DNA of 64,000 nt from Clostridia bacterium (GTDB lineage Bacteria; Bacillota; Clostridia; Oscillospirales; CAG-272), in assembly GCA_017453245.1 (NCBI GenBank), contig JAFTKM010000008.1, positions 19,017 to 83,016 of the forward strand. The letters run 5' to 3'. The notes below the pieces were generated by a model. That model saw only the letters and a list, made by a program, of their open reading frames with translations. It had not been told where the DNA came from and made no database searches. The position numbers and the translations under genes were made by a program. Within the stretch, counting starts at the first letter, position 1, and each line of letters opens with the position of its first letter. Shown one piece after another: positions 3,035 through 63,868 of the stretch.

Positions 3035-3063
3035 ATTCTAGCACGTTTTTTCATATATTTCAA
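3035..3063 (-). promoter_or_regulatory. Candidate sigma-A promoter of the TetR gene
   Basis: On the minus strand: TTGAAA (3058-3063), 17-nt spacer, TGcTAGAAT (-10 at 3035-3040, extended TGn). Confidence 0.45.
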
Positions 3064-3082
3064 GTGCTTTTTACAAAAAGAC

Positions 3083-3110
3083 TTGACTTTTTCCCTATTT
3101 CGTGTATAAT
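3083..3110 (+). promoter_or_regulatory. Candidate sigma-A promoter of the aromatic amino-acid operon
   Basis: TTGACT (3083-3088), 16-nt spacer, TATAAT (3105-3110). A second TATAAT lies at 3115-3120. Confidence 0.5.
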
Positions 3111-3125
3111 ATGTGTATAATCCAA

Positions 3126-3140
3126 GTTAACAATGTTAAC
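3126..3140. promoter_or_regulatory. Candidate operator O2 (GTTAACAATGTTAAC), between the operon -10 and the RBS
   Basis: Two GTTAAC palindromes spaced by 3 nt. This is the paralogue of O1 at 3014-3028. Confidence 0.4.
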
Positions 3141-3154
3141 ATTACGGAGGAATT

Positions 3155-4351
3155 ATGATCAACGACAAGATGTACGCGCTCGGTTCTCAGCGCTCCGAGA
3201 TACGCGAGCTTTTTGAATACGGAAAAAAAAGAAAGGCCGAGATAGGCGAGGAGAACGTATTTGACTTCTCGCTCGGTAACCCGAGTGTCCCCTGCCCCGA
3301 GGAGGTTAACGAGGCAATCGTCTCCCTCGTCAGGAGCGGCAACTCTGTGAGCCTGCACGGCTACACGTCAGCGCAGGGCGATAAGGGTGTGCGCGATGCT
3401 ATCGCCTCGCATATTTCACGGGCTCACGGCTTTGAGGTATCCGGTGACGATCTGTATCTCACGGTTGGCGCGGCGGCGGCTCTTACCTGCTCCCTGACTG
3501 CAACGGTATGCCCCGGCGAGGAGGTCATTCTCCTGGCTCCGTATTTCCCCGAATATAAGGTTTTCGTCGAGAGGACGGGAGCGAGCGTCAAGGTAGTCAA
3601 ATGCACGGAAGGAAGCTTCGAGCCTGACGTTGATGCTATCAGGTCGGCTATCACCGAGAGGACTGCGGCGATCATAGTTAACTCACCGAACAACCCCACC
3701 GGCGCGGTATACTCCGAGAGTAGCATCAAGGCTATCGTAGAGGTCTTGAATGAGAAATCACGCGAGTACGGAAGGGACATATATCTCATAGCGGACGAGC
3801 CGTACAGAGAGCTTGTCTACGACGGTGTGTACGTGCCGTTTATTCCTAAGTATTACGATAATACTATCGTCTGCTATTCGTACAGTAAATCGCTCTCTCT
3901 CCCGGGCGAGAGAATAGGCTATTGCCTTGTCAGCCCGAGAGCACATGAGCACCTGAGGGTATACCTTGCGATATGCGGAGCGGGACGCGCGCTCGGTTAC
4001 GTTTGCGCACCGTCACTTCTGCAAAAAGCGATACCTTACTGCATAGGACTTTACTCAGATTTGAGCGTTTATGATAAAAATAGACAACTTTTGTTGACAA
4101 ATCTTACCGAATACGGTTTTGAAGTGGTAAAGCCGCAAGGAGCGTTCTATTTATTTATCAAGGCTCCGGATGGCAATTCGAAGGCTTTCTCCGAGGAGGC
4201 TAAGAAGCATGAGCTACTTATAGTCGCGAGCGACAGCTTCGGCTACTCGGGATACGCCAGAATATCCTACTGCGTAAAAACCGAACAGATAGAAAAGGCC
4301 CTCCCCGCCTTCCGCGCTTTGGCGGAGCGCTTAGGGCTTTGCGGAGAATAA
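3155..4351 (+). CDS. PLP-dependent class I/II aminotransferase (aspartate/aromatic type)
   Basis: 398 aa. Motifs NPSVPCP, NSPNNPTG and YSYSKSLSLPGERIGY (PLP-lysine motif). GGAGG RBS. First gene of the aromatic cluster. Confidence 0.85.
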   Translation: MINDKMYALGSQRSEIRELFEYGKKRKAEIGEENVFDFSLGNPSVPCPEEVNEAIVSLVRSGNSVSLHGYTSAQGDKGVRDAIASHISRAHGFEVSGDDLYLTVGAAAALTCSLTATVCPGEEVILLAPYFPEYKVFVERTGASVKVVKCTEGSFEPDVDAIRSAITERTAAIIVNSPNNPTGAVYSESSIKAIVEVLNEKSREYGRDIYLIADEPYRELVYDGVYVPFIPKYYDNTIVCYSYSKSLSLPGERIGYCLVSPRAHEHLRVYLAICGAGRALGYVCAPSLLQKAIPYCIGLYSDLSVYDKNRQLLLTNLTEYGFEVVKPQGAFYLFIKAPDGNSKAFSEEAKKHELLIVASDSFGYSGYARISYCVKTEQIEKALPAFRALAERLGLCGE

Positions 4352-4354
4352 ATA

Positions 4355-5443
4355 ATGAAGAATAAGCTGACAGTTGCAAGAGAAAAAATCAATGAGATAG
4401 ACCGCGAGATGGCAAAGCTCTTTGTCGAGAGGCTTAAGGCATCCGAGCTCGTTGCGGAATACAAGCAGGAGCACGGTCTTGAAATACTCGACCCGATAAG
4501 AGAGGCGGAGGTAATAAGACGCAATTCCGAGGCGGTCGAAAACGATGTTTACAGAGAATATTACGTCAACTTCCAGAAGAATACGATGTCACTCTCGAGA
4601 GCGTATCAGGCAAGACTCCTTGGGGGAATGAAGGTAGCTTACTCAGGTACTGAGGGAGCGTATGCGCACCTCGCCGCAAAGAAGCTCTTCCCTACCTCTG
4701 AGGCAATAGGATACGGCAGCTTTGACGAAGCGTATGCCGCTGTGGAAACGGGTGAATGTGACGTCGCCGTCCTCCCTATTGAAAACAGCTATAACGGAGA
4801 CGTAGGACAGGTGAGCGACCTGATGTTCTCGGGCCCCTTGTACGTCAATACCGTGACAGAGCTGGCAATATCTCACGACCTACTCGCGCCTCGTGGTACA
4901 AAGATCGAGGATATCAAAACGGTCATCAGCCATCCTCAGGCTCTCGGACAATGTCACGGCTACATCGTCGGGCACGGATACTCGGAGATGGAGTTTGCGA
5001 ATACCGCTCTCGCGGCAAAATACGTTTCGGAATGCACAGACGGAAAGACGGCGGCGATAGCGAGCGCGGAGGCGGCAGAGATATTCGGCCTTGAGGTGCT
5101 AGCGACAAATATAAACGAGTCGAGAAGCAATACCACGAGATTTGCGGTATTCTCGCGCTCGGAAAACAAGAATTCCATCACCGATAAGAGAGTGCATACG
5201 ATACTTCTCTTCACCGTGCGCCACGAGGCGGGAGCGCTTGCTAAGGCGCTTGAAGTTATCGCAAAATACGGCTTCAATATGGGCGCGCTTCGCTCACGTC
5301 CGATGAAGGAGCTGCTCTGGCAGTATTACTTCTACGTTGAAGCGGAGGGTAACCTGGACAGCGAGGACGGAAGAAAAATGATGGAGGAGCTCAAGGCTTA
5401 CTGTGACAGACTCAAGACCGTAGGCTCGTATACTGTAATCTGA
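4355..5443 (+). CDS. pheA: Bifunctional chorismate mutase / prephenate dehydratase
   Basis: N-terminal CM_2-like helix (REKINEIDREMAKLFVERLKASELVAEYK). PDT domain (VAYSGTEGAYAH, IENSYNGDV) and a C-terminal ACT-like region (TRFAVF...TILLF). Confidence 0.85.
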   Translation: MKNKLTVAREKINEIDREMAKLFVERLKASELVAEYKQEHGLEILDPIREAEVIRRNSEAVENDVYREYYVNFQKNTMSLSRAYQARLLGGMKVAYSGTEGAYAHLAAKKLFPTSEAIGYGSFDEAYAAVETGECDVAVLPIENSYNGDVGQVSDLMFSGPLYVNTVTELAISHDLLAPRGTKIEDIKTVISHPQALGQCHGYIVGHGYSEMEFANTALAAKYVSECTDGKTAAIASAEAAEIFGLEVLATNINESRSNTTRFAVFSRSENKNSITDKRVHTILLFTVRHEAGALAKALEVIAKYGFNMGALRSRPMKELLWQYYFYVEAEGNLDSEDGRKMMEELKAYCDRLKTVGSYTVI

Positions 5444-5458
5444 TAAACGGAGTTAATA

Positions 5459-6481
5459 ATGACAGTTTTGAATATGAATCTCGGGGAGAATTCCTACCCT
5501 ATCACAGTAGGCCAAGGACTCCTCGATAGATGTAACGAATACTTCGATCTTAACCGAAAGGTATTTATAATAACCGACGATGGCGTTCCGAATAAATATG
5601 CAAATACAGTTGCGAATTTATGCAAGGAGGCTACCGTCTATACCGTAAAGCAGGGTGAAGGCTCGAAGAGCATCGGCACGCTCGAGGGCGTGCTTGTAGC
5701 TATGGCAAATGCTGAGCTCGGACGCTCGGACTGTGTGGTTGCGATTGGCGGAGGCGTTGTCGGAGACCTTTCCGGATTTGCGGCATCGGTATATATGCGC
5801 GGCATAGATTTCTACAACGTACCAACCACCCTTCTCTCCCAGGTCGACTCGTCGATAGGAGGAAAGACCGCGGTAAATCTCGGCGGTATCAAGAATATCG
5901 TAGGCGCTTTCAAGCAACCGAAGGCGGTGCTTATCGACACAGACGTGCTTGACACTCTGCCGAAAAGACATATGGCAAACGGTCTATGCGAGGCAATCAA
6001 AATGGCGGCGACAAGCAATGCCGCGCTCTTTGGAAAACTCGAGACCTTGAATGAAAGCGACATATATAATAACATAGAAGAGATCATTGTCGAAGCACTC
6101 AAGATCAAGAAGACAGTAGTGGAAGAGGACGAGAAGGAATCAGGTCTTAGAAAAATACTCAACTTCGGTCACACTCTCGGTCACGGAATAGAAGCAAACG
6201 AGGACCTCGGCAACCTGTATCACGGAGAGTGCGTAGCTCTCGGTATGCTGCCAGTGACCTTCGGCGAGGCAAAGGAAAGACTCGCAAGACTCCTCAAAAA
6301 GGTGTCCTTACCGACCGAATACTCTGGAGATATAGGCGCCGCGCTCAGCTTTGTTTCGCACGATAAAAAGTGCGCCTCGGGCAAGGTTTCGGTCATACTC
6401 TGCGAGAAGATCGGAGAGTGTAAGATCGAGTCAATGAGCATCGACGAGTTCTCTAAATTAGTTCTTAACCATTATAATTGA
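5459..6481 (+). CDS. aroB: 3-dehydroquinate synthase
   Basis: 340 aa. Motifs GGGVVGDLSGFAAS, PTTLLSQVDSSIGGKTAVN and NFGHTLGHGIE. Confidence 0.9.
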   Translation: MTVLNMNLGENSYPITVGQGLLDRCNEYFDLNRKVFIITDDGVPNKYANTVANLCKEATVYTVKQGEGSKSIGTLEGVLVAMANAELGRSDCVVAIGGGVVGDLSGFAASVYMRGIDFYNVPTTLLSQVDSSIGGKTAVNLGGIKNIVGAFKQPKAVLIDTDVLDTLPKRHMANGLCEAIKMAATSNAALFGKLETLNESDIYNNIEEIIVEALKIKKTVVEEDEKESGLRKILNFGHTLGHGIEANEDLGNLYHGECVALGMLPVTFGEAKERLARLLKKVSLPTEYSGDIGAALSFVSHDKKCASGKVSVILCEKIGECKIESMSIDEFSKLVLNHYN

Positions 6482-52456: not shown

Positions 52457-52597
52457 GATCTCTCCTAAAATATTTTATCTATTCTATTTTAGCACAACGA
52501 TATGCTTTTTGCAAGGTGGTTGGAGCTTTTTATTTATTTTGTTATACCCGTGTTCATAAAAACTCAAGCGAGAAAAATAAAAGGATTTTCGGCAAAA

Positions 52598-52636
52598 TAT
52601 AAAAGCTGTCGTGAATGACGTGCGACAGCTTTTTTG
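52598..52636. terminator. Bidirectional intrinsic terminator closing the cassette array
   Basis: AAAAGCTGTCG / CGACAGCTTTTTTG. On the minus strand it is followed by TTTTATATTTT. Confidence 0.7.
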
Positions 52637-52776
52637 TGGGTTTATGTATACTTTGATTAGCATTATGCTAAATTAAGATGATTTTGCGGCACGTGATAAC
52701 AACCGCGTTATGAGATTCATCAAAAGGAAATCTTATATTTGCTCCTCTCTGAAATCAAAACTTGTTTGTTAATTGT

Positions 52777-53124
52777 TCTATAGCACACCGGGGCGAAAAA
52801 GTAAAGGACGGTTTGATTACTCGGGGCCGCCCTGCTTTTAACCTTCCCCAGCGAAGCGAGTTGGGGAAGGGGGACCACCTTTGGTGGTGGATGAGGTTGA
52901 ATTGATGCTCACGCATCATAAATTGCACGTTGTGCATGAATTGGCTACACCATGAATTGACGGCAAAGTCGTCACTATGGTGAAGTTTTTGCCTACGGCA
53001 AAAGTGAAGTTGTGCGAAGCACAGTGAAGTTTGAGGCGTTGCCTCAAGTGAAGTTGATTTTGCTCGGTGCAAAATCAGTTATTCGGTAAGAGACCTCATG
53101 GCTTTGGCAATACAGTCGGGGTAA
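52777..53124 (-). repeat. Cassette junction repeat copy 5 (cotJC-tail mimic 53079-53117, word-hairpin array 52842-53075, promoter block 52777-52835); followed by no ORF
   Basis: The mimic encodes DCIAKAMRSLTE-stop on the minus strand. The array is parsed in the findings. TTTACT, 17 nt, TATAGA. Confidence 0.8.
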
Positions 53125-53571
53125 CTAATTATTCAATAGATGATTTATCAACTCTTCGAGTCCGTCGGAATCAACGTTATAACCCCTCTTGCCGGTTTCG
53201 CTTTCTTCTGTTGCTTTATCCACCCACCCCGAATATGAAAATTGTAGCTCATACGTGGGGTAATAAAAAACAAGAACATTCTCTCTAGGCCAGTTTGGCT
53301 CCATAACTATCAGTTTTTCAAATTTCATATTAGCTATTTCTGATATTGCATAATCACATTCTTCGGCACTTAATGTTTTGACAATTTCGGTATTGAATTG
53401 ATATTCCGGTTCATAAATAGTAGAATAAGTGACAATCTCCGCCTTTACTAAATCGGCGCTTAATTCATCGTAAGTATAAGTTACGTAAGAGCCTGTACAT
53501 GATGCTGTGTTGAATAAAACGCAAAATACAATAAGCAAAACTAGTACGCACTTCACATTGTTATTATTCAT
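53125..53571 (-). CDS. Cassette D cargo: small lipoprotein (148 aa), hypothetical
   Basis: MNNNNVKCVLVLLIVFCVLFNTASCTGS (signal plus Cys). GGAGG lies 8 nt upstream of the ATG at 53571. AT-rich. Confidence 0.7.
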   Translation of the reverse strand: MNNNNVKCVLVLLIVFCVLFNTASCTGSYVTYTYDELSADLVKAEIVTYSTIYEPEYQFNTEIVKTLSAEECDYAISEIANMKFEKLIVMEPNWPRENVLVFYYPTYELQFSYSGWVDKATEESETGKRGYNVDSDGLEELINHLLNN

Positions 53572-53915
53572 AGTTGTTCCCTCCATAAAAAACTTATAGA
53601 ATGATGCCACATTTATTATACCACACTCACACGAAAAAGTAAAGGACGATTTGATTTCTCAAACCGCCCTATATGATGAATTGATGCTCACGCATCATGA
53701 ATTGCACGATGCGCATGAATTGGCTACGCCATGAATTGACGGCAGAGCCGTCACTATGGTGAAGTTTTTGCCTATGGCAAAAGTGAAGTTGTGCGAAGCA
53801 CAGTGAAGTTTGAGGCGTTGCCTCAAGTGAAGTTGCTTTTGCTTCTTGCAAAATCAGTTATTCGGTAAGAGACCTCGTAGCTTCGGTAATACAGTCAACA
53901 TAAAGCATTATTCAA
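53572..53915 (-). repeat. Cassette junction repeat copy 4 (mimic 53858-53896, array 53676-53855, promoter 53615-53643)
   Basis: The mimic encodes DCITEATRSLTE-stop. Promoter is TTTACT, 17 nt, TGgTATAAT. Confidence 0.85.
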
Positions 53916-54773
53916 TCACTTTAATTTTTCTTTACAATAACGCAAAAGCTCTTTGGTTAAGCAACAGAACGATTCACCTTTCACCTGTACCTTTCCATTG
54001 GAATCTATGAACTCACAACAAAATTCAATATAGTAGCACAACTTTATACTATTATCCAACAGGACTCTAATTGGTGAGCCAATTTGGACAAGTTCTTTTT
54101 TTCTCCAAAGATTTCGGTCAATGAAAATGCCTTTATCATCATAGTCAGAATTACTCGCAATTTGCTCTAATGGCTCAAATGAGAAGTATATTCCAAGATA
54201 TGTTGAATTTTCATTAGATAAAAACATTGTGAGTTCTACAAAATCAACTTGCTTAAAGCATCTTTTCCCAAATTCATTCCAATACCAAAGATATATTAAC
54301 AGTTGCTTTTGGGAAAGAAATTCAGTCAATCCAGATAAATCTTCTTTTTCCCAAAATCCACCGATCGTATATGTTTTGTATTTTATTTTTGGTTGTTCGC
54401 AATAAGTAATTGCCTGTTCAAACAACTGTGACGAGGGCGAATAATCAATATCAATTCTGCCAAATGTTTTGGTCTTGCCACATTCCGTGCATTGTGAGAC
54501 AAGCTCAACGGAAATAAAATCATCTGTTTCTTTTCTTCGCAGGTAATCAAAACGAACCTTAAAGAAATCATTTTTACAGGAACACTTTTGCTTGCTTGGA
54601 TGCTTTTCTTGAATTAAATCATACCAATATTCTTTACTATCAAGAATAAAATAGGATTTATCAGAACGAGATATAAGAATACCTGCATTTTCATCACGAA
54701 TATATCTGATTTGAAACTCATCTTCTCCTATAGATGACACAATTTCTTTTTGTATTTTTCTTTCGTCAAGCAT
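53916..54773 (-). CDS. Cassette C cargo: hypothetical protein (285 aa) with a CxC...CxxC putative zinc-ribbon
   Basis: KQKCSCKNDFF...SQCTECGKTK. AAAGGAA RBS. A hand count of one 60-nt line (54001-54060) gives 17 G+C. Confidence 0.7.
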   Translation of the reverse strand: MLDERKIQKEIVSSIGEDEFQIRYIRDENAGILISRSDKSYFILDSKEYWYDLIQEKHPSKQKCSCKNDFFKVRFDYLRRKETDDFISVELVSQCTECGKTKTFGRIDIDYSPSSQLFEQAITYCEQPKIKYKTYTIGGFWEKEDLSGLTEFLSQKQLLIYLWYWNEFGKRCFKQVDFVELTMFLSNENSTYLGIYFSFEPLEQIASNSDYDDKGIFIDRNLWRKKELVQIGSPIRVLLDNSIKLCYYIEFCCEFIDSNGKVQVKGESFCCLTKELLRYCKEKLK

Positions 54774-55018
54774 ATGGCAATTCCTTTCTTTTGTTATACA
54801 ATGTCAAACGATGAATTGAGCCGTTGGCTCATGAATTGCACAAAGTGCATGAATTGGCTACGCCATGAATTGACGGCTATGCCGTCGTTGTGGACACCTC
54901 ATCCACCACTTCGCGGTCGACCCCCTTCTCCCACTGGAGAAGGCTGAGGTTATTCGGTCAAAGACCTCATAGCTTCGGCAATACAGTCAGAGTGAAGTAT
55001 TCTTTTTAAATACGGTTC
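54774..55018 (-). repeat. Cassette junction repeat copy 3 (mimic 54950-54988, short array 54808-54949); lacks the conserved promoter block
   Basis: The mimic encodes DCIAEAMRSLTE-stop. About 55 nt (CCTTCTCCCACTGGAGAAGG hairpin through CATAGCTTCG) is near-identical to the true cotJC end at 57021-57075. Confidence 0.85.
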
Positions 55019-55522
55019 TCATTTGCCACAACAGCTATTACAAGCACTATCGGGTTCTTTACAATGATACCAACAATAATCCTGGCTAATTCGAGACGCA
55101 TATTTTGAAGCCTGAATTTCAAGAGAACGATTGTTTTTTTCCTTATCATCATAAAAATACCATTGAAAATAATGTGTCAGTTCATGACTTAGCGAATCGT
55201 ATATTTGGCATAAGCTTTGTTGCGTAGGAATGTATATCTGCGGATATGCTCGTTCGCCACTTTCATGATTTGAGAAAAACATCCCATAGCTATATCCCCC
55301 TTTGTGCTTACGAAATTTTTCTTGATTGCAAAAATAAACATTACATCTTATCGGGAAGTAAAATTCTTTTCTTAAATAGCGTACAAAATTACATATACAT
55401 TTCTTGGTTTTAGGGTCAATGTCTGATGCAAAATGAAGAGAAAGATTTGATTTAGGTGCTGAATCTGCATAAAATGCCAAGTTTTCCTCTGTTTTTGTTA
55501 CCCACAAAAAGTTATTTGCCAT
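55019..55522 (-). CDS. Cassette B cargo: hypothetical HExxH protein (167 aa), possible small zinc metallopeptidase, Cys-rich C-terminus
   Basis: LSHELTHYFQW and C-terminal CWYHCKEPDSACNSCCGK. ATG at 55522 has GGAGGT 8 nt upstream. Confidence 0.7.
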   Translation of the reverse strand: MANNFLWVTKTEENLAFYADSAPKSNLSLHFASDIDPKTKKCICNFVRYLRKEFYFPIRCNVYFCNQEKFRKHKGGYSYGMFFSNHESGERAYPQIYIPTQQSLCQIYDSLSHELTHYFQWYFYDDKEKNNRSLEIQASKYASRISQDYCWYHCKEPDSACNSCCGK

Positions 55523-55895
55523 TTTTAAGCACCTCCATTTCAAATCGACTCTATGATAATTATACCACACACCTACCAAAAAGTAAAGGACGATTTGATC
55601 TCTAAACCGCCCTATTGAATGAATTGAGCCGTTGGCTCATGAATTGCACGTTGTGCATGAATTGGCTACGCCATGAATTGACGGCTATGCCGGCGTTGTG
55701 GACACCTCACCCACCGTCTGCGACGTCCCCCCTCCCCAAAGGGGAGTGTAAATGCCACCTTCGCAAAGCGAAGATTTCATCGCTTTAGCGATTTCATCCG
55801 ACCTCGTCGGATTTATTTCGTCTTGGACGGATTTAATTGCGAAGCCTACTCCGTAAGGCTTCGCATGGCTTCGCCAATGCAGTCGACATGAAGTA
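55523..55895 (-). repeat. Cassette junction repeat copy 2 (recoded mimic 55846-55884, array 55616-55845 with ATTTCAT-type words, promoter 55559-55587)
   Basis: The mimic encodes VDCIGEAMRSLTE-stop with different codons for RSLTE-stop. Promoter is TTTACT, 17 nt, TGgTATAAT. Confidence 0.85.
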
Positions 55896-56669
55896 CTATT
55901 TATTGTTTTCCACCAACTTTTTTATGTAATCGCTTCTGCTTCCGTCCCAATGACACAATTCGCATTTGCCGTCCTTAAATTGATGCTTACACTTTTCATA
56001 ACCATAAAGAATATGTGCACACTCGGGACAAAGCGACATCATTTGCGATTTAGTTTTAATAAACTTGCTTCCGCATTCATCACATTCGTGACAGATTGAG
56101 CCAAGAGTTTCTTTCATTTTTTCTCTATCATAATCTAAAAAATAACCTTCAAGTTTTGGATAAAACTCAATATATTTATTCTCAGAAAAGAAAACAATAT
56201 CACAACCCCTATCGTCATAGACTGAAAATATAAATTGATCATCAAATGAAACAAAACTGACCAAAGGTGAATATTGATTATCTATTTGTTTTTTTATTAT
56301 TCTTTCAAAAACTGCGAAATCAACATCAAATGAAATATATCTTTTTACTGTTTCAACATCTTCGTCTATTAGATCTATACTATGTAGCACATCCATATCA
56401 AGATTAATTACTTCGTCAATGGTTATTCCAAAATTGCCAACTTCGCATGCTTTGCCGTCAATAAAATACTCTAAATAAAATGCCGCATCTATTTTTTTGT
56501 TTTCAAATAAAATGTTAGCAATTTTCATTGCTCTCTCTAAAGCGTTATCAAAATATTCTTTGCCTTGACCAATTCCCAACTCGCATCTTAAAGCTAATTT
56601 ATTACTGTAAAACCAGGGCTGCGAGTAATCGAAAGTGGGGTCAAGTATTTTTTCACGCATATTGTTCAT
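55896..56669 (-). CDS. Cassette A cargo: hypothetical protein (257 aa), DUF3885-like N-terminal region (tentative) plus C-terminal double zinc-ribbon
   Basis: SVYDDRGCDIVFF, and CHECDECGSKF...CPECAHILYGYEKCKHQFKDGKCELCHW. AT-rich. Confidence 0.7.
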   Translation of the reverse strand: MNNMREKILDPTFDYSQPWFYSNKLALRCELGIGQGKEYFDNALERAMKIANILFENKKIDAAFYLEYFIDGKACEVGNFGITIDEVINLDMDVLHSIDLIDEDVETVKRYISFDVDFAVFERIIKKQIDNQYSPLVSFVSFDDQFIFSVYDDRGCDIVFFSENKYIEFYPKLEGYFLDYDREKMKETLGSICHECDECGSKFIKTKSQMMSLCPECAHILYGYEKCKHQFKDGKCELCHWDGSRSDYIKKLVENNK

Positions 56670-57045
56670 GTTACTTGCTCTCTTTTAGAATATAATATTG
56701 TTTTTTACATTATACCACAACCCACATGAAAAAACAAGGACGATTTGACTAATCAAACCGCTAATCAAACCGCCCTTGTGGATGAATTGAGCCGTTGGCT
56801 CATGAATTGCACAGAGTGCATGAATTGGCTACGCCATGAATTGACGGCTGTGCCGTCGTTGTGGTGAAGTTTGCGTTTCACGCAAGTGAAGTTGTGCGAA
56901 GCACAGTGAAGTTGATTGTAGCCTTCTCCTGAGGGAGAAGGGGGACCACTTGTGGTGGATGAGGAGTTGGCTATAATTACAACAAAAGTGACACCTCATC
57001 CGCCTCACTTCGTTCAGCACCTTCTCCCACTGGAGAAGGCTTAGG
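56670..57045 (-). repeat. Cassette junction repeat copy 1 (abuts the true cotJC stop; array 56781-57045, promoter 56709-56737)
   Basis: Same ATGAATT and GTGAAGTT word-hairpin grammar. Promoter is TTGTTT, 17 nt, TGgTATAAT. Carries a duplicated GGTTTGATTAG unit. Confidence 0.8.
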
Positions 57046-57594
57046 CTATTCGGTCAAAGACCTCATAGCTTCGCCAAAGCGCTGGTAGTGGACAATCTCG
57101 CGCTGGCGGAGGAATTTGATAGCGTCGTTTACGTCGGGGTCGTCGCTAAGGCGGAGGATATTATCGTAGGTGACTCTCGCCTTCTGCTCTGCCGCGAGGT
57201 CCTCGTTGAGGTCGGAGAGCGCGTCTCCCTTTGAGGATATTGCAAACGCGTTGAAGGGCTCGCCCGATGCCGCCGAGGGGAAGACACCGTTGCCGTGGCC
57301 GATGTAATACTTATCAAGGCCGCCGGCAGTTATCTGCTCGGGGGTGAGGTTGCGTGTGAGCTGATAGATGATACTGCCCACCATCTCGGCATGCCCGAGC
57401 TCCTCATTGCCGATGTCCGTTAAGGTAGCGATAATCTTGCCCTTAGGCATAGTGAATCTCTGATTCAGGTATCTTGTCGCGGCGCCGAGCTCACCGTCGG
57501 GACCTCCGAGGGCGTCTATAATAAGACTTGCTAAGCGCGCGTTGGGGTTCTTAATCTTTACGGGGTACTGAAGCTTTTTCTCATATATCCACAT
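57046..57594 (-). CDS. cotJC: Spore coat protein CotJC (manganese-catalase-family)
   Basis: MWIYEKKLQYPVKIKNPNARLA...GELGAATRYLNQRF...EELGHAEM...REIVHYQRFGEAMRSLTE. Close to my recollection of B. subtilis CotJC. Confidence 0.9.
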   Translation of the reverse strand: MWIYEKKLQYPVKIKNPNARLASLIIDALGGPDGELGAATRYLNQRFTMPKGKIIATLTDIGNEELGHAEMVGSIIYQLTRNLTPEQITAGGLDKYYIGHGNGVFPSAASGEPFNAFAISSKGDALSDLNEDLAAEQKARVTYDNILRLSDDPDVNDAIKFLRQREIVHYQRFGEAMRSLTE

Positions 57595-59517: not shown

Positions 59518-59725
59518 GTGTTCTCCGTCAAGAAGAACACACTATAACTAAGTTTGCCCTTTCGGGCAAGTGCAGTTGTCTTCGACAGTGAAGTTCACTT
59601 CGTGAGTGAAGTTTTGCCTGTCGGCGAAGTGATGGGCAAACTTAACTACACTGCGAGCATTTGCGAGCAACTTCACTGTGCTTAGCACAACTTCACTTTC
59701 GCTTTTGCGAAAACTTCACCAGCAG
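59518..59725. repeat. Word-hairpin array with AGTGAAGTT (x2) followed by its reverse complement AACTTCACT/C (x3)
   Basis: AGTGAAGTT at 59587-59595 and 59605-59613. AACTTCACT at 59669-59677 and 59689-59697, and AACTTCACC at 59712-59720. Each pair is separated by a 9-15-nt mini-hairpin. Confidence 0.8.
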
Positions 59726-61858: not shown

Positions 61859-62154
61859 GTGACGATGATTCTTTACTCCGTAAAGAGATATATTCGCCCT
61901 GAGGCGAGTGATATGTTGCTTTTCGCAACGTGATATTATTTCGCCGTGCGAAATAGTGATATGCTCGCTACAAGCGAGCGTTAAAAGAAAAAGCAACCAG
62001 CAGGTGACGATGATTCTTTACTCCGTAAAGATCGATATTCGCCTTACGGCGATCGATATGCGCTTCGCGCTCGATATATTGGCTTCGCCAATTCTATATG
62101 TGCTCTCACGAGCACGATAAAAGAAGAAAGCAACCATCTACCGGTTGCTTTTCT
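61859..62154. repeat. Two tandem word-hairpin arrays, each opened by GTGACGATGATT-CTTTACtccGTAAAG; words GTGATAT (array 1) and TCGATAT (array 2)
   Basis: Array 1 spans 61859-61979 and array 2 spans 62004-62116. Each is followed by an AAAAGAAnAAAGCAACC... terminator-like motif. Full parse in the findings. Confidence 0.8.
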
Positions 62155-62208: not shown

Positions 62209-62257
62209 ATTACTTAACTTCAACTTCTGCGCCTGCAGCCCCCGAGTCTGCTGCAGA
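62209..62257 (-). pseudogene. rplL 3'-end fragment F2 (last ~10 codons plus stop plus 3' UTR)
   Basis: 62209-62240 is identical over 32 nt to 62695-62726. It then diverges in a 5-nt patch (CCCGA instead of TTGAG). Confidence 0.85.
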
Positions 62258-62390
62258 TAATCAAGCGAAGCGTATCGGGGAGCTCGCTCACCAGTACGCG
62301 AGCGCAGATTGCTCCGTGGCGGCTCGTCACAGACGAGCATAGGCGCGTAGCGCCAAGGACACGAAGTGGACTTACGCCACATAGGAGTAT
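62256..62390. repeat. Structured ~135-nt element, copy B
   Basis: About 93% identical to 62498-62631 (about 9 differences by eye). Contains perfect triloop hairpins GCTCGTC-aca-GACGAGC and GGCGC-gta-GCGCC, enclosed by GTGGCG/CGCCAC. Confidence 0.85.
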
Positions 62391-62502
62391 CTTCTCAGCC
62401 TCTTCCTTAGAGATGCCTTCCTTGATGGTCTTGGGAGCAGTCGGGCAAGATCCTTAGCATCCTTAAGACCAAGACCGCAAACGTCCTTAACAAGCTTGAT
62501 AA
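62387..62502 (-). pseudogene. rplL internal fragment F1 (codons for IKLVKDV...EAEK), frameshifted
   Basis: 50 nt and then 54 nt are identical to 62744-62793 and 62801-62854. They flank a patch where real ACTCAAC (7 nt) is replaced by TCGGGC (6 nt), shifting the frame by one. Confidence 0.85.
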
Positions 62503-62631
62503 TCAAGCGAAGCGTATCGGGGAACTCGTTCACCAGTACGCGAGCGCAGATTGCTCCGTGGCGGCTCGTCGCAGACGAGCATAGGTGCGTAGCGCCAAGG
62601 ACACAAAGTGGACTTACGCCGCAGGGAGCAT
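62498..62631. repeat. Structured ~135-nt element, copy A
   Basis: See copy B. Lies between the true rplL terminator and fragment F1. Confidence 0.85.
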
Positions 62632-62650
62632 AACGGGGATTTTAAAAGAA

Positions 62651-63652: not shown

Positions 63653-63835
63653 TTTGTTTCCACCTCCATAAAAATTTCAAATAAAAAATCCTTTCCGGGA
63701 GAAACACACAACTCTCCGAGAAAGGACAACCAAAATGAACGCAACGGTACTCCATCGCGTAAAATTATTGAATTTGTCTCACCTCGGCAGGAAAGCTATG
63801 CGCTTTTACCGGAACCTGCTGTCTTAGGATACCTA
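63653..63835 (-). ncRNA. rplJ 5' leader, candidate L10-leader-type attenuator
   Basis: ~180-nt UTR between the promoter and the ATG. Imperfect stem CCTTTCTCGGAGA / TCTCCCGGAAAGG (63690-63726) followed by ATTTTTTATTT on the minus strand. Autoregulatory L10 leaders are well known in Firmicutes. The structure has not been checked against a covariance model. Confidence 0.4.
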
Positions 63836-63839
63836 TGGT

Positions 63840-63868
63840 ATTATACACGAAGTGAAGTCACTTGTCAA
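63840..63868 (-). promoter_or_regulatory. Consensus sigma-A promoter of rplJL
   Basis: On the minus strand: TTGACA (63863-63868), 17-nt spacer, TATAAT (63840-63845). Confidence 0.7.

Follow-up and report, generated by a model that had tools for sequence, protein, structure and literature searches.

Word-hairpin arrays in a Clostridia genome resemble the Gut-1 motif and may be orphan copies of repeats that accompany S23p/IVP genes

Background

Arrays in which constant words of about 7 nt alternate with variable mini-hairpins occur in a 64,000-nucleotide stretch of a Clostridia bacterium genome (Oscillospirales, CAG-272; contig JAFTKM010000008.1 of assembly GCA_017453245.1, positions 19,017 to 83,016 of the forward strand), which was analysed whole and is called the window below. 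The closest catalogued motif is Gut-1 (Rfam RF01706), found by Weinberg et al. 2010 in human-gut sequences and in no sequenced organism (PMC2864571). The 43 representatives known at that time were rated certainly RNA and not cis-regulatory (PMC2864571), and Rfam classes the family as 'Gene; sRNA' (small RNA). A literature search found no Gut-1 paper beyond that of Weinberg et al. 2010.

Short intergenic words are also described elsewhere in bacteria. The heptamers of Beggiatoaceae, Cyanobacteria and Bacteroidetes (TAACTGA etc.) often lie just upstream of start codons, and their function is unknown; the paper that describes them mentions neither 'four helix' nor 'S23', so that it draws no link to four-helix-bundle proteins (PMC4679880). 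In Coxiella a tandem run of GACAGAT heptamers, three or four depending on the strain, stands ahead of the S23p open reading frame (ORF), and the terminal inverted repeats of the element are cut by RNase III; the S23p protein of Xanthomonas is cited in the same paper as a homopentameric toroid (PMC4990558). Beyond this Coxiella remark, a literature search found no link of heptamer repeats to S23p.

Arrays of the window and their relation to Gut-1

The array at 53676..53855 (copy 2, plus strand) carries four ATGAATT words with hairpins, a short joint, and four (A)GTGAAGTT words with hairpins. The flanking genes run on the minus strand, where its words read AACTTCAC and AATTCAT. Four more copies lie nearby on the plus strand. 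Copy 1 (52897..53075) has four ATGAATT-type words, two of them mutated, then four GTGAAGTT words, with a mini-hairpin after each; copies 3 (54808..54886) and 4 (55616..55694) have only the four ATGAATT words with hairpins; and copy 5 (56781..56915) has four ATGAATT words followed by three GTGAAGTT words, again with hairpins. A preliminary description, made from the letters alone, had parsed copy 2 and named the other four sites. Its parse proved exact when the sequence was re-read, and an alignment of the five copies confirmed the common grammar, the drifting triloops (GTT, GAT, AAA, GTT and AGA in GCAC-NNN-GTGC; AAA, AGA, TAT, TAT and TGT in GACGGC-NNN-GCCGTC) and the wholesale replacement of one hairpin, which is GATGC-tcac-GCATC in two copies and GAGCC-gtt-GGCTC in three. 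The words, which it had called invariant, are so in general, the exceptions being TTGAATT and ATAAATT in the copy at 52897.

Three further array loci, absent from the preliminary description, complete the set. One with a third word type, ATGAAAT/AATTAAAT, has four hairpins and the opposite orientation (55769..55839, minus strand). An inverted GTGAAGT pair lies between convergent genes at 59545-59722. Its left half, referred to as module L (59545..59643, plus strand), comprises ACTAAGTTTGCCC-nnnn-GGGCAA, GTGCAGTT/GTGAAGTT words with three hairpins, and GGGCAAACTT as its close; its right half (59644..59722, minus strand) has three GTGAAGTT words and one degenerate word with hairpins, and abuts the bidirectional terminator of a heparinase-like gene. 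A GTGATAT array with three words (61885..61975, plus strand) and a TCGATAT array with three to four (62028..62100, plus strand), both with hairpins, are each preceded by a copy of GTGACGATGATTCTTTACTCCGTAAAGA.

All of these lie within the last 11 kb of the window; word-chain and permissive Rfam scans found no array between 1 and 52 kb. ATGAATTG occurs 18 times in the window against 2.0 expected and GTGAAGTT 16 times against 1.8, the copies of both are all clustered, and none of 100 shuffles reached either count. A word-agnostic search for chains, defined as 7-mers recurring at least three times at 13-34 nt spacing, returned 24 in the window against a mean of 0.16 and a maximum of 3 in block-shuffled sequence. 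The shuffled control that the preliminary description had proposed thus does not yield similar chains.

At the gathering score an Rfam scan reported nothing at the window arrays. In a permissive scan Gut-1 was the sole family to match them, at 46.2 (59545-59617), 41.6 (61885-61966), 30.7 (55769-55839), 25.4, 24.8 and 18.1 bits, the last two within copy 5; the best of these remains below the gathering score of 50 bits. The five copies are sub-threshold variants, at 24.8 bits or less, and for 53676-53855 itself the permissive scan reported no Gut-1 match. Homologues of module L at five loci in other genomes score 50.6-55.3 bits, above the cut-off, and the GTGAAGT module is therefore Gut-1 by Rfam's own criterion. 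The Gut-1 consensus, CAaUGAAAU-hairpin-GUGAAAU-hairpin-GUGAAAU-hairpin-GUGAAAU, follows the same grammar as the arrays, which likewise have at least three hairpins separated by a conserved, GUGAAAU-like, single-stranded word of 7 nt, and whose stems are supported by covariation in the module L alignment. The Gut-1 seed alignment contains both GUGAAAU and GUGAUAU words as well as inverted pairs. Judged from sequence, the five arrays are diverged relatives of Gut-1. The preliminary description had taken them for an undescribed repeat family, a view that a match to a catalogued one was to overturn. With Gut-1, of identical grammar, as the only Rfam family matched and with homologous copies passing its gathering score, such a match has largely been found; since Gut-1 is already catalogued, the arrays are not a new kind.

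Pairing, loops and strand of the hairpins

The hairpins are 9-21 nt long with stems of 3-8 bp, and their sequence differs between units and copies. When spacers between GTGAAGTT words were collected from all genomes, 204 of the 286 distinct ones proved to be centred hairpins, compared with 2% of shuffled spacers, and the closing pair in such spacers is C-G in 85%. Since MAFFT misregisters the replaced hairpin in the five window copies, pairs there were judged by eye and the formal count was made on 24 aligned copies of module L. In this alignment 95.7% of cells are paired, against 31-50% in slid controls. The covariation check proposed in the preliminary description gave strong compensatory change: at nine pairs 57 cells have changed on both sides, compared with 14.7 in shuffles (0/500 as high), a count to be read with the stem variants in mind, which are a few discrete subtypes recurring across species, so that independent compensatory events are fewer than the cells suggest. 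An alternative long-range pairing of AAGTTTGCCC with GGGCAAACTT is also kept in module L, including one compensatory change.

The fold of 53672-53858 is more stable than that of shuffled sequence with either parameter set (z of -4.06 for RNA minus, -3.33 for RNA plus, -5.72 for DNA minus and -4.60 for DNA plus), and the cleanest chain of eight hairpins is obtained on the minus strand with DNA parameters. Among 1086 stem pairs 96% are Watson-Crick; wobble pairs make up 0.6% in the word sense and 0.9% in the opposite sense, a difference uninformative as a strand test. Functional RNA helices are usually rich in G.U pairs. The stems look more like DNA palindromes kept perfect on both strands than like RNA helices, and could be kept so by selection or, perhaps, by template switching within quasi-palindromes.

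The loops do distinguish the strands. In the word sense triloops are T-N-Y at any stem length, with T as the first base in 75% and C or T as the third in 85%, and stem mismatches are C.T/T.C in 22 cases and G.A in one. Read on the opposite strand, the loops become C[R-N-A]G and the mismatches G.A. GNA triloops closed by C-G, on which Hirao and Yoshizawa worked, reportedly form especially stable DNA mini-hairpins. Because the loop 'knows' the hairpin centre, it is the folded single strand that matters. The sequence asymmetry favours, as the relevant folded strand, whether RNA or DNA, the one opposite to that modelled by Rfam, and the strand of Gut-1 is probably misassigned there.

Distribution in other genomes

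A scan for three GTGAAGTT words in one genome per species gave at least 118 stretches. Among the matches listed, these come mostly from metagenome-assembled genomes (MAGs) of gut and rumen Clostridia, often several per MAG, and the carriers include Oscillospiraceae, Acutalibacteraceae, Christensenellaceae, 'Ca. Scatosoma' and Ruminococcus. Loci outside the window are given L-numbers: array loci (e.g. L030), viral contigs (L331-L340) and annotated plasmids (L342-L351). The usual form is a composite of a variable hairpin, AACTAAGTTTGCCC-nnnn-GGGCAA, three GTGAAGTT words with hairpins, GGGCAAACTT, then three or four AACTTCAC words with hairpins and often a bidirectional terminator. Again among the matches listed, the order word then reverse-word outnumbers other arrangements of paired arrays by 60 to 4, the genes on either side of composites are convergent (17), tandem (23) or divergent (4), and single arrays have no bias relative to flanking gene orientation (12 against 7). 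Most arrays elsewhere stand between ordinary housekeeping genes.

In metagenomes, ATGAATTG arrays of the same composite design were found, in which the hairpin types GATGC..GCATC and GACGG..CCGTC recur; about 100 of 120 metagenome matches to three ATGAATTG words are unrelated simple repeats. True arrays were present on 4 viral contigs out of 63 hits, most of the others being unrelated. An all-against-all BLAST of 739 ORFs from the array loci (at least 118) revealed no recurrent transposase or recombinase family, and no integrase was noticed among the ORFs of the window between 40 and 64 kb, among eight Pfam-scanned proteins or among recurrent families near other arrays.

Association with S23p/IVP genes

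Clustering of the same 739 ORFs left a single recurrent small family adjoining arrays, a gene for a ~117-aa protein that belongs to PF05635 (23S_rRNA_IVP, S23p; E = 3e-24) and whose only solved relative by sequence is PDB 2RLD, with five chains. The IVP start codon lies 10-45 nt past the last word of the composite at L030, L034, L064, L074, L081 and L089 (GTGAAGT), L039 and L173 (TCGATAT), and L209 (GTGATAT). One genome can hold both word types, as at L039, where the TCGATAT-type IVP gene has a GTGAAGT array ~800 nt away. An independent sample, with contexts fetched by IVP protein identity and blind to arrays, agrees: in most contexts the IVP gene directly follows a rumA/rlmCD-type methyltransferase gene and variable genes then follow, and 6/6 of the intergenic regions read are the composite, in five of which the stop codon lies inside the first word, AACTAAGTT.

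Beyond these loci, IVP homologues on viral contigs (39-55% identity) have a composite upstream in 6/10 cases, with the words GTGAAAT, GTGAAGC and ATGATAT, the first of which is the canonical Gut-1 word; two more of the ten have four tandem TAATTCG heptamers. At 10/10 annotated plasmid/chromid loci, inverted arrays of a short word peculiar to the lineage, mostly without hairpins, stand on both sides of the IVP ORF (Monoglobus, Treponema, Nostoc, Planktothrix, Chlorohelix, Bernardetia, Euhalothece, Gloeocapsa, Pseudanabaena and Chondrinema). The Chondrinema gene is flanked by TAACTGA-type words. The Chlorohelix gene has ATGAAGG/ATGAATT upstream and AATTCAT-type words downstream, ATGAATT being the word of the 53676-53855 array. 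Several plasmid IVP genes lie inside operons, between hsdS and hsdR, helicase and methylase, or the adaptor-subunit and permease-subunit genes of an RND pump.

Protein clades and word types go together. In a neighbour-joining tree of 19 IVPs every word type with at least two members forms one clade, and a concerted switch of all words, from GTGAAGT to TCGATAT, distinguishes lineages at the orthologous rumA-IVP spacer. Four of the five window word types (GTGAAGT, GTGATAT, TCGATAT and ATGAATT) flank IVP genes elsewhere; inverted word arrays are represented in the window by the pair at 59545-59722, the five listed copies being direct arrays only. Physical linkage of the word-array kind to PF05635 genes extends over at least six bacterial lineages.

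Several features of these loci were seen in passing. At L030 and L034 the variable hairpin before module L, upstream of AACTAAGTT, consists of the last codons of rumA (..VETIVCL../..VESVVCL..) and their reverse complement, so that the C-terminal tail of the protein is dictated by the palindrome. L034 has two composites (461-732 and 3060-3334), direct repeats that join a rumA-type 3' end to module L and bracket three genes, including the IVP gene and variable neighbours, and L314 has a 120-bp direct repeat (rumA 3' end plus module L; 3740-3865 and 5085-5205) that brackets the IVP gene and a 208-aa gene. On plasmids and viral contigs PF05635 ORFs are often found inside operons or just after tRNA genes.

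The window arrays as possible orphan copies of an IVP repeat partner

The explanation tentatively preferred here, at a little under an even chance, is that the window arrays are the Clostridial, hairpin-interrupted form of the ~7-nt word arrays found beside S23p/IVP genes, one version of which Rfam lists as Gut-1. The window copies, which have no IVP gene close by, would be orphan modules, perhaps comparable to repetitive extragenic palindromic (REP) sequences away from the gene of their REP-associated tyrosine transposase (RAYT). The heptamer would be a sequence-specific ligand of a cognate, homo-oligomeric, ring-shaped IVP. The mini-hairpins would be spacers that, in a single strand of RNA or DNA, fold away and so bring the words side by side, as they already are in the pure tandem heptamers of other phyla. 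Such folding out could explain why words are constant, why hairpins are free yet strictly paired and why loops drift. The modules may behave like dispersed extragenic repeats of the REP type or of bacterial interspersed mosaic elements (BIMEs), found downstream of genes and next to terminators either alone or in inverted pairs, and may mark the boundaries of variable cassettes, in the window those of a run of four orphan genes inserted at the cotJC 3' end. The sequences show the grammar, the conserved hairpins, the strand asymmetry, the kinship with Gut-1 and the physical linkage of such arrays to IVP genes; binding of the words by IVP, a single-stranded bound form and an effect on host or element are our inference.

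Among the three functions offered in the preliminary description, protein-binding words gain the most support, through the S23p/IVP gene association. The phasing proposed for them, some two helical turns apart on duplex DNA, does not hold, as the spacing of 16-24 nt varies with stem length; the loop bias, which tracks the hairpin centre, argues for a folded single strand and not for duplex DNA.

Several observations weigh against an orphan IVP partner. A tblastn search of the window with Clostridial IVP gave nothing below E = 0.2, and about 95% of the sampled arrays do not adjoin an IVP gene, so that the link between IVP and arrays is one of association, as with REP and RAYT. Most Clostridial examples represent one orthologous locus (rumA/rlmCD, composite, IVP), and the agreement between protein tree and word type could be no more than joint inheritance of adjacent sequences. 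Which strand carries the words, relative to the IVP coding sequence, differs between phyla. The T-N-Y loop bias is weak in the ATGAATT hairpins of the window itself, as read by eye. The term 'dispersed' derives from other genomes, the window arrays being confined to 11 kb. To our knowledge no stand-alone IVP has been shown to bind anything, and Warrier et al. question whether the Coxiella protein is produced at all (PMC4990558).

A wider proposal is possible, at somewhat lower odds. The words would be ligands of toroidal S23p/IVP (PF05635) pentamers, one word per IVP clade, and Gut-1, the intervening sequences of 23S rRNA and the heptamers known from Beggiatoaceae, Cyanobacteria and Bacteroidetes would all belong to one widespread repeat-protein system, selfish or regulatory, in which the fold-out hairpins of Clostridia would reveal that the ligand is single-stranded.

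Gene cassettes at the cotJC end

The genes flanking the arrays at 52897-56915 are all on the minus strand. In that sense each intergenic region runs from the upstream stop codon through a copy of the terminal cotJC codons and, in some cases, further hairpin modules to the AACTTCAC array and then the AATTCAT array, after which come an intrinsic terminator, a promoter with a TG-extended -10 element, and the next gene. The earlier placement of the arrays between a gene end and the next promoter holds for the five listed copies. Terminators on the minus strand follow three arrays and TG-extended -10 promoters follow two. Directly after copy 2 in the minus sense stands a terminator at 53643..53670 (AGGGCGGTTTGA..TCAAATCGTCCT plus a T-run), with similar ones at 55587-55613 and 56734-56779; the G.U pairs of the intrinsic terminator are functional on the minus strand only. 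The promoter-like site of the next cassette gene (53615..53643, minus strand) consists of TTTACT, 17 nt and TATAAT with a TG extension, and the same site recurs at 55559-55587. An insulator or terminator stack, as first suggested, is a possible role for the arrays.

Terminator and promoter may also be viewed as a fused module, in which AGGGCGGTTTGA..TCAAATCGTCC and a T-run are joined to the TG-extended -10 promoter GTGTGGTATAAT. It occurs in the window at 53615-53670, 55559-55613 and 56700-56779 and in a related species (L306) at 5330-5400 and 5900-5970. Repetition before several cassette genes and conservation in a related species make this module apparently portable.

Four orphan single-gene cassettes of 161, 285, 186 and 257 aa, on the minus strand and low in G+C, lie within 52457-57100, between cotJC (Mn-catalase family) and the gene for the electron-transfer subunit of dihydroorotate dehydrogenase B. 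Downstream of every cassette gene (53125-56669) come a cotJC 3'-end copy and, beyond it, arrays. The cotJC-end copy directly upstream, in the minus sense, of array copy 2 is at 53858..53899 (..AEATRSLTE*, minus strand), others are at 53079-53119, 54950-54992 and 55846-55888, and the real cotJC end is at 57046-57095. The copies still translate to ..DCI(A/G)(E/K)AMRSLTE*, and in one of them synonymous changes have left the peptide intact, so that this copy evolved at another place as the end of a real gene and arrived here later. The four cassettes look like the outcome of repeated insertion at the cotJC end.

At the same locus a related species has cotJABC, a 117-aa gene, a homologue of the 285-aa gene, and genes for a GNAT-family acetyltransferase, an SfsA-family protein and the dehydrogenase subunit, together with the terminator-promoter module and a cotJC-end remnant. 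No word-hairpin arrays were found when its sequence was read across the same region, which indicates that the arrays are separable insertions and not an obligatory part of the cassettes.

The cassette proteins themselves have no Pfam, NCBIfam or PADLOC match, except for DUF3885 in one, the 257-aa protein (55896-56669), which has C-terminal zinc-ribbon-like CxxC pairs. A role of the cassettes in immunity or defence is possible. The 186-aa protein (55019-55579) has an HExxH motif, SHELTHY. A homologue of the 285-aa protein at L310 stands in a defence-island-like context (SIR2, OLD nuclease, AAA_15), and at L306 the set of cassettes at the same place differs from that of the window. The intergenic regions also hold a second repeat family, with CCTTCTCC-nnnn-GGAGAAGG hairpins and GGGGGACCAC..GTGGTGGATGAGG modules in both orientations (52830-52895, 54890-54945, 55700-55760 and 56915-57040). 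Near the GTGATAT and TCGATAT arrays, 62212-62640 is a decayed second copy of the rplL 3' half ending ..AAGAEVEVK*, downstream of intact rplL, another gene-end duplicate adjoining arrays; it is broken by two elements of ~125 bp (62258-62380 and 62500-62620) that have no Rfam match. At 63674-63846, upstream of rplJ, is an ordinary ribosomal protein L10 leader (RF00557; 45.7 bits, cut-off 44).

Alternative explanations

A self-sufficient, REP/BIME-like extragenic hairpin repeat with no dedicated protein is rather unlikely as a full account, and it is the alternative that survives best. The words would be linkers of an ancestral unit, and the hairpin stacks would act in cis, by blocking 3' exonucleases or as back-up or bidirectional terminators, and would spread by recombination. 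The arrays do stand after stop codons and beside intrinsic terminators, in convergent as well as tandem intergenic regions, they fold far above chance on both strands, no recurrent enzyme gene emerged from the 739 ORFs near them, and the syntenic relative that lacks them points to dispensable insertions. What such a repeat leaves unexplained is the identity of the 7-nt words, within arrays and across families, despite turnover of stems and loops, their joint switch from GTGAAGT to TCGATAT in the orthologous composite, and the presence of the same words around IVP genes; the missing orientation bias of single arrays (12 against 7) would also be unexpected for a 3'-UTR (untranslated region) element.

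The preliminary description had also suggested folded, attC-like recombination sites. In its fuller form, with attC- or att-like sites that capture single-gene cassettes at the 3' ends of conserved genes, this is quite unlikely. The word-hairpin arrays are nevertheless located at cassette boundaries: all four cassette genes (53125-56669) carry a cotJC 3'-end copy and then arrays, the direct repeat of L314 brackets the IVP and 208-aa genes as the composites of L034 bracket three genes, and the rumA stop codon falls within the first word, AACTAAGTT. As a mechanism it found no support. No integrase or other recombinase was noticed among the window ORFs at 40-64 kb or the eight Pfam-scanned proteins, and none recurs near arrays, no attC core was seen when the arrays were read by eye, with no pattern search made, and most arrays lie between ordinary housekeeping genes. 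The syntenic relative has cassettes, terminator-promoter module and cotJC-end remnant, yet no arrays, and single-crossover homologous recombination explains the duplicated gene ends equally well.

A stand-alone small RNA gene, as in the view of Rfam and Weinberg et al., possibly a sponge that offers single-stranded GUGAAGU-type sites to an RNA-binding protein, is likewise quite unlikely. Its stems would be expected to covary, as they do, a few U.G pairs occur in the word sense in module L, and its discoverers judged the motif to be certainly RNA and not cis-regulatory. A gene of this kind would not be expected in many copies per region, with either orientation and with inverted pairs, and the arrays often lie just beyond terminators without a promoter of their own. 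The rarity of wobble pairs (0.6%/0.9% of 1086) resembles a DNA palindrome and not an RNA helix, and the asymmetry of loops and mismatches points to the strand opposite Rfam's model.

Arrays of duplex-DNA operators, bound by a transcription factor that acts on the downstream promoter, are very unlikely: ATGAATT words do lie 30-130 bp upstream of cassette promoters, and a -35-like hexamer overlaps the last word at some IVP loci, but the spacing of 16-24 bp varies with stem length, compensatory stem changes and a hairpin-centred loop bias would be meaningless on duplex DNA, and many arrays lie between convergent genes without a promoter. Type III toxin-antitoxin RNA repeats, TRAP/CsrA-type sponges, Rex/CRP boxes and dif/Xer sites were dropped for want of a fit in sequence or architecture.

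Significance

What is added here is that the Gut-1 kind is a multi-copy extragenic repeat of Clostridia with a candidate protein partner. The PF05635 family is very large and related to Avd, the accessory protein of diversity-generating retroelements, and its stand-alone members are not known to have a role. Three orphans may therefore be one problem: the Gut-1 motif, the intergenic heptamer repeats of several phyla and the stand-alone four-helix-bundle proteins. If the words are ligands of a ring protein, simple binding assays and phylogenetic profiles can test it, and annotators would stop calling the arrays sRNA genes. The interest lies in this joint testability of IVP and heptamers, and the arrays alone would rate lower. 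In gut Clostridia they also mark hot spots, located at the 3' ends of conserved genes, where orphan cassettes accumulate, and they break metagenome assemblies.

Comparison with known systems

The arrays share with Gut-1 the constant 7-nt word alternating with three variable, covarying hairpins, the frequent inverted pairs and the gut origin. The five listed arrays differ in their ATGAATT/GTGAAGT words, their 4+4 units and the lack of the closing AAGTTTGCCC/GGGCAAACTT pairing, and Rfam models the strand opposite to that favoured by the loop bias. Gut-1 was described as an sRNA to which neither host nor function was assigned, whereas the kind seen here is a multi-copy extragenic repeat of Clostridia.

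The S23p/IVP 'intervening sequence' (IVS) elements of Coxiella and Leptospira 23S rRNA likewise have ~7-nt words by the ORF and inverted flanks (PMC4990558). The window, however, has no IVP ORF, the classic IVS lies inside 23S rRNA with plain inverted repeats, and mini-hairpins between words were seen only in the Clostridial and viral-contig loci examined. The heptamers of Beggiatoaceae, Cyanobacteria and Bacteroidetes are, like the window words, lineage-specific intergenic 7-nt words in 2 to tens of copies (PMC4679880); Beggiatoaceae-type heptamers have a pure period of 7, whereas the window words are separated by hairpins of 9-21 nt.

The statement of the preliminary description that the arrays are neither CRISPR (clustered regularly interspaced short palindromic repeats) nor classical REP/BIME stands. 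CRISPR combines repeats of 23-50 nt with unique non-palindromic spacers and cas genes; here the words are of 7-9 nt, the spacers are palindromes of 8-21 nt and cas genes are absent among the neighbours. Integron attC sites, Neisseria intergenic mosaic elements (NIMEs) and minimal mobile elements are, as here, structured repeats that bound single-gene cassettes between conserved genes. The arrays, read by eye, have no R/L core (GTTRRRY) or extrahelical bases and no integrase accompanies them, and the window cassettes, unlike those of integrons, carry their own promoters and terminators, with arrays that are dispensable in a syntenic relative.

A further parallel in organisation is with REP/BIME and REPIN-RAYT systems of Proteobacteria, which are also extragenic, multi-copy and hairpin-forming, lie after genes, form mosaics with conserved linkers and inverted pairs, and have a putative single-copy cognate protein gene itself flanked by the repeat. 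No recurrent transposase-like family that could be a cognate RAYT was found near the array loci (at least 118), in a search confined to those neighbourhoods. In REP a palindrome of 20-40 bp is conserved, with stems of 12-18 bp and a GTAG/CGTC tag at the hairpin foot, whereas in the arrays the hairpin varies, the linker is conserved, stems are of 3-8 bp and no such tag was seen. RAYT is an HUH Y1 transposase, whereas the protein associated with the arrays is a four-helix bundle.

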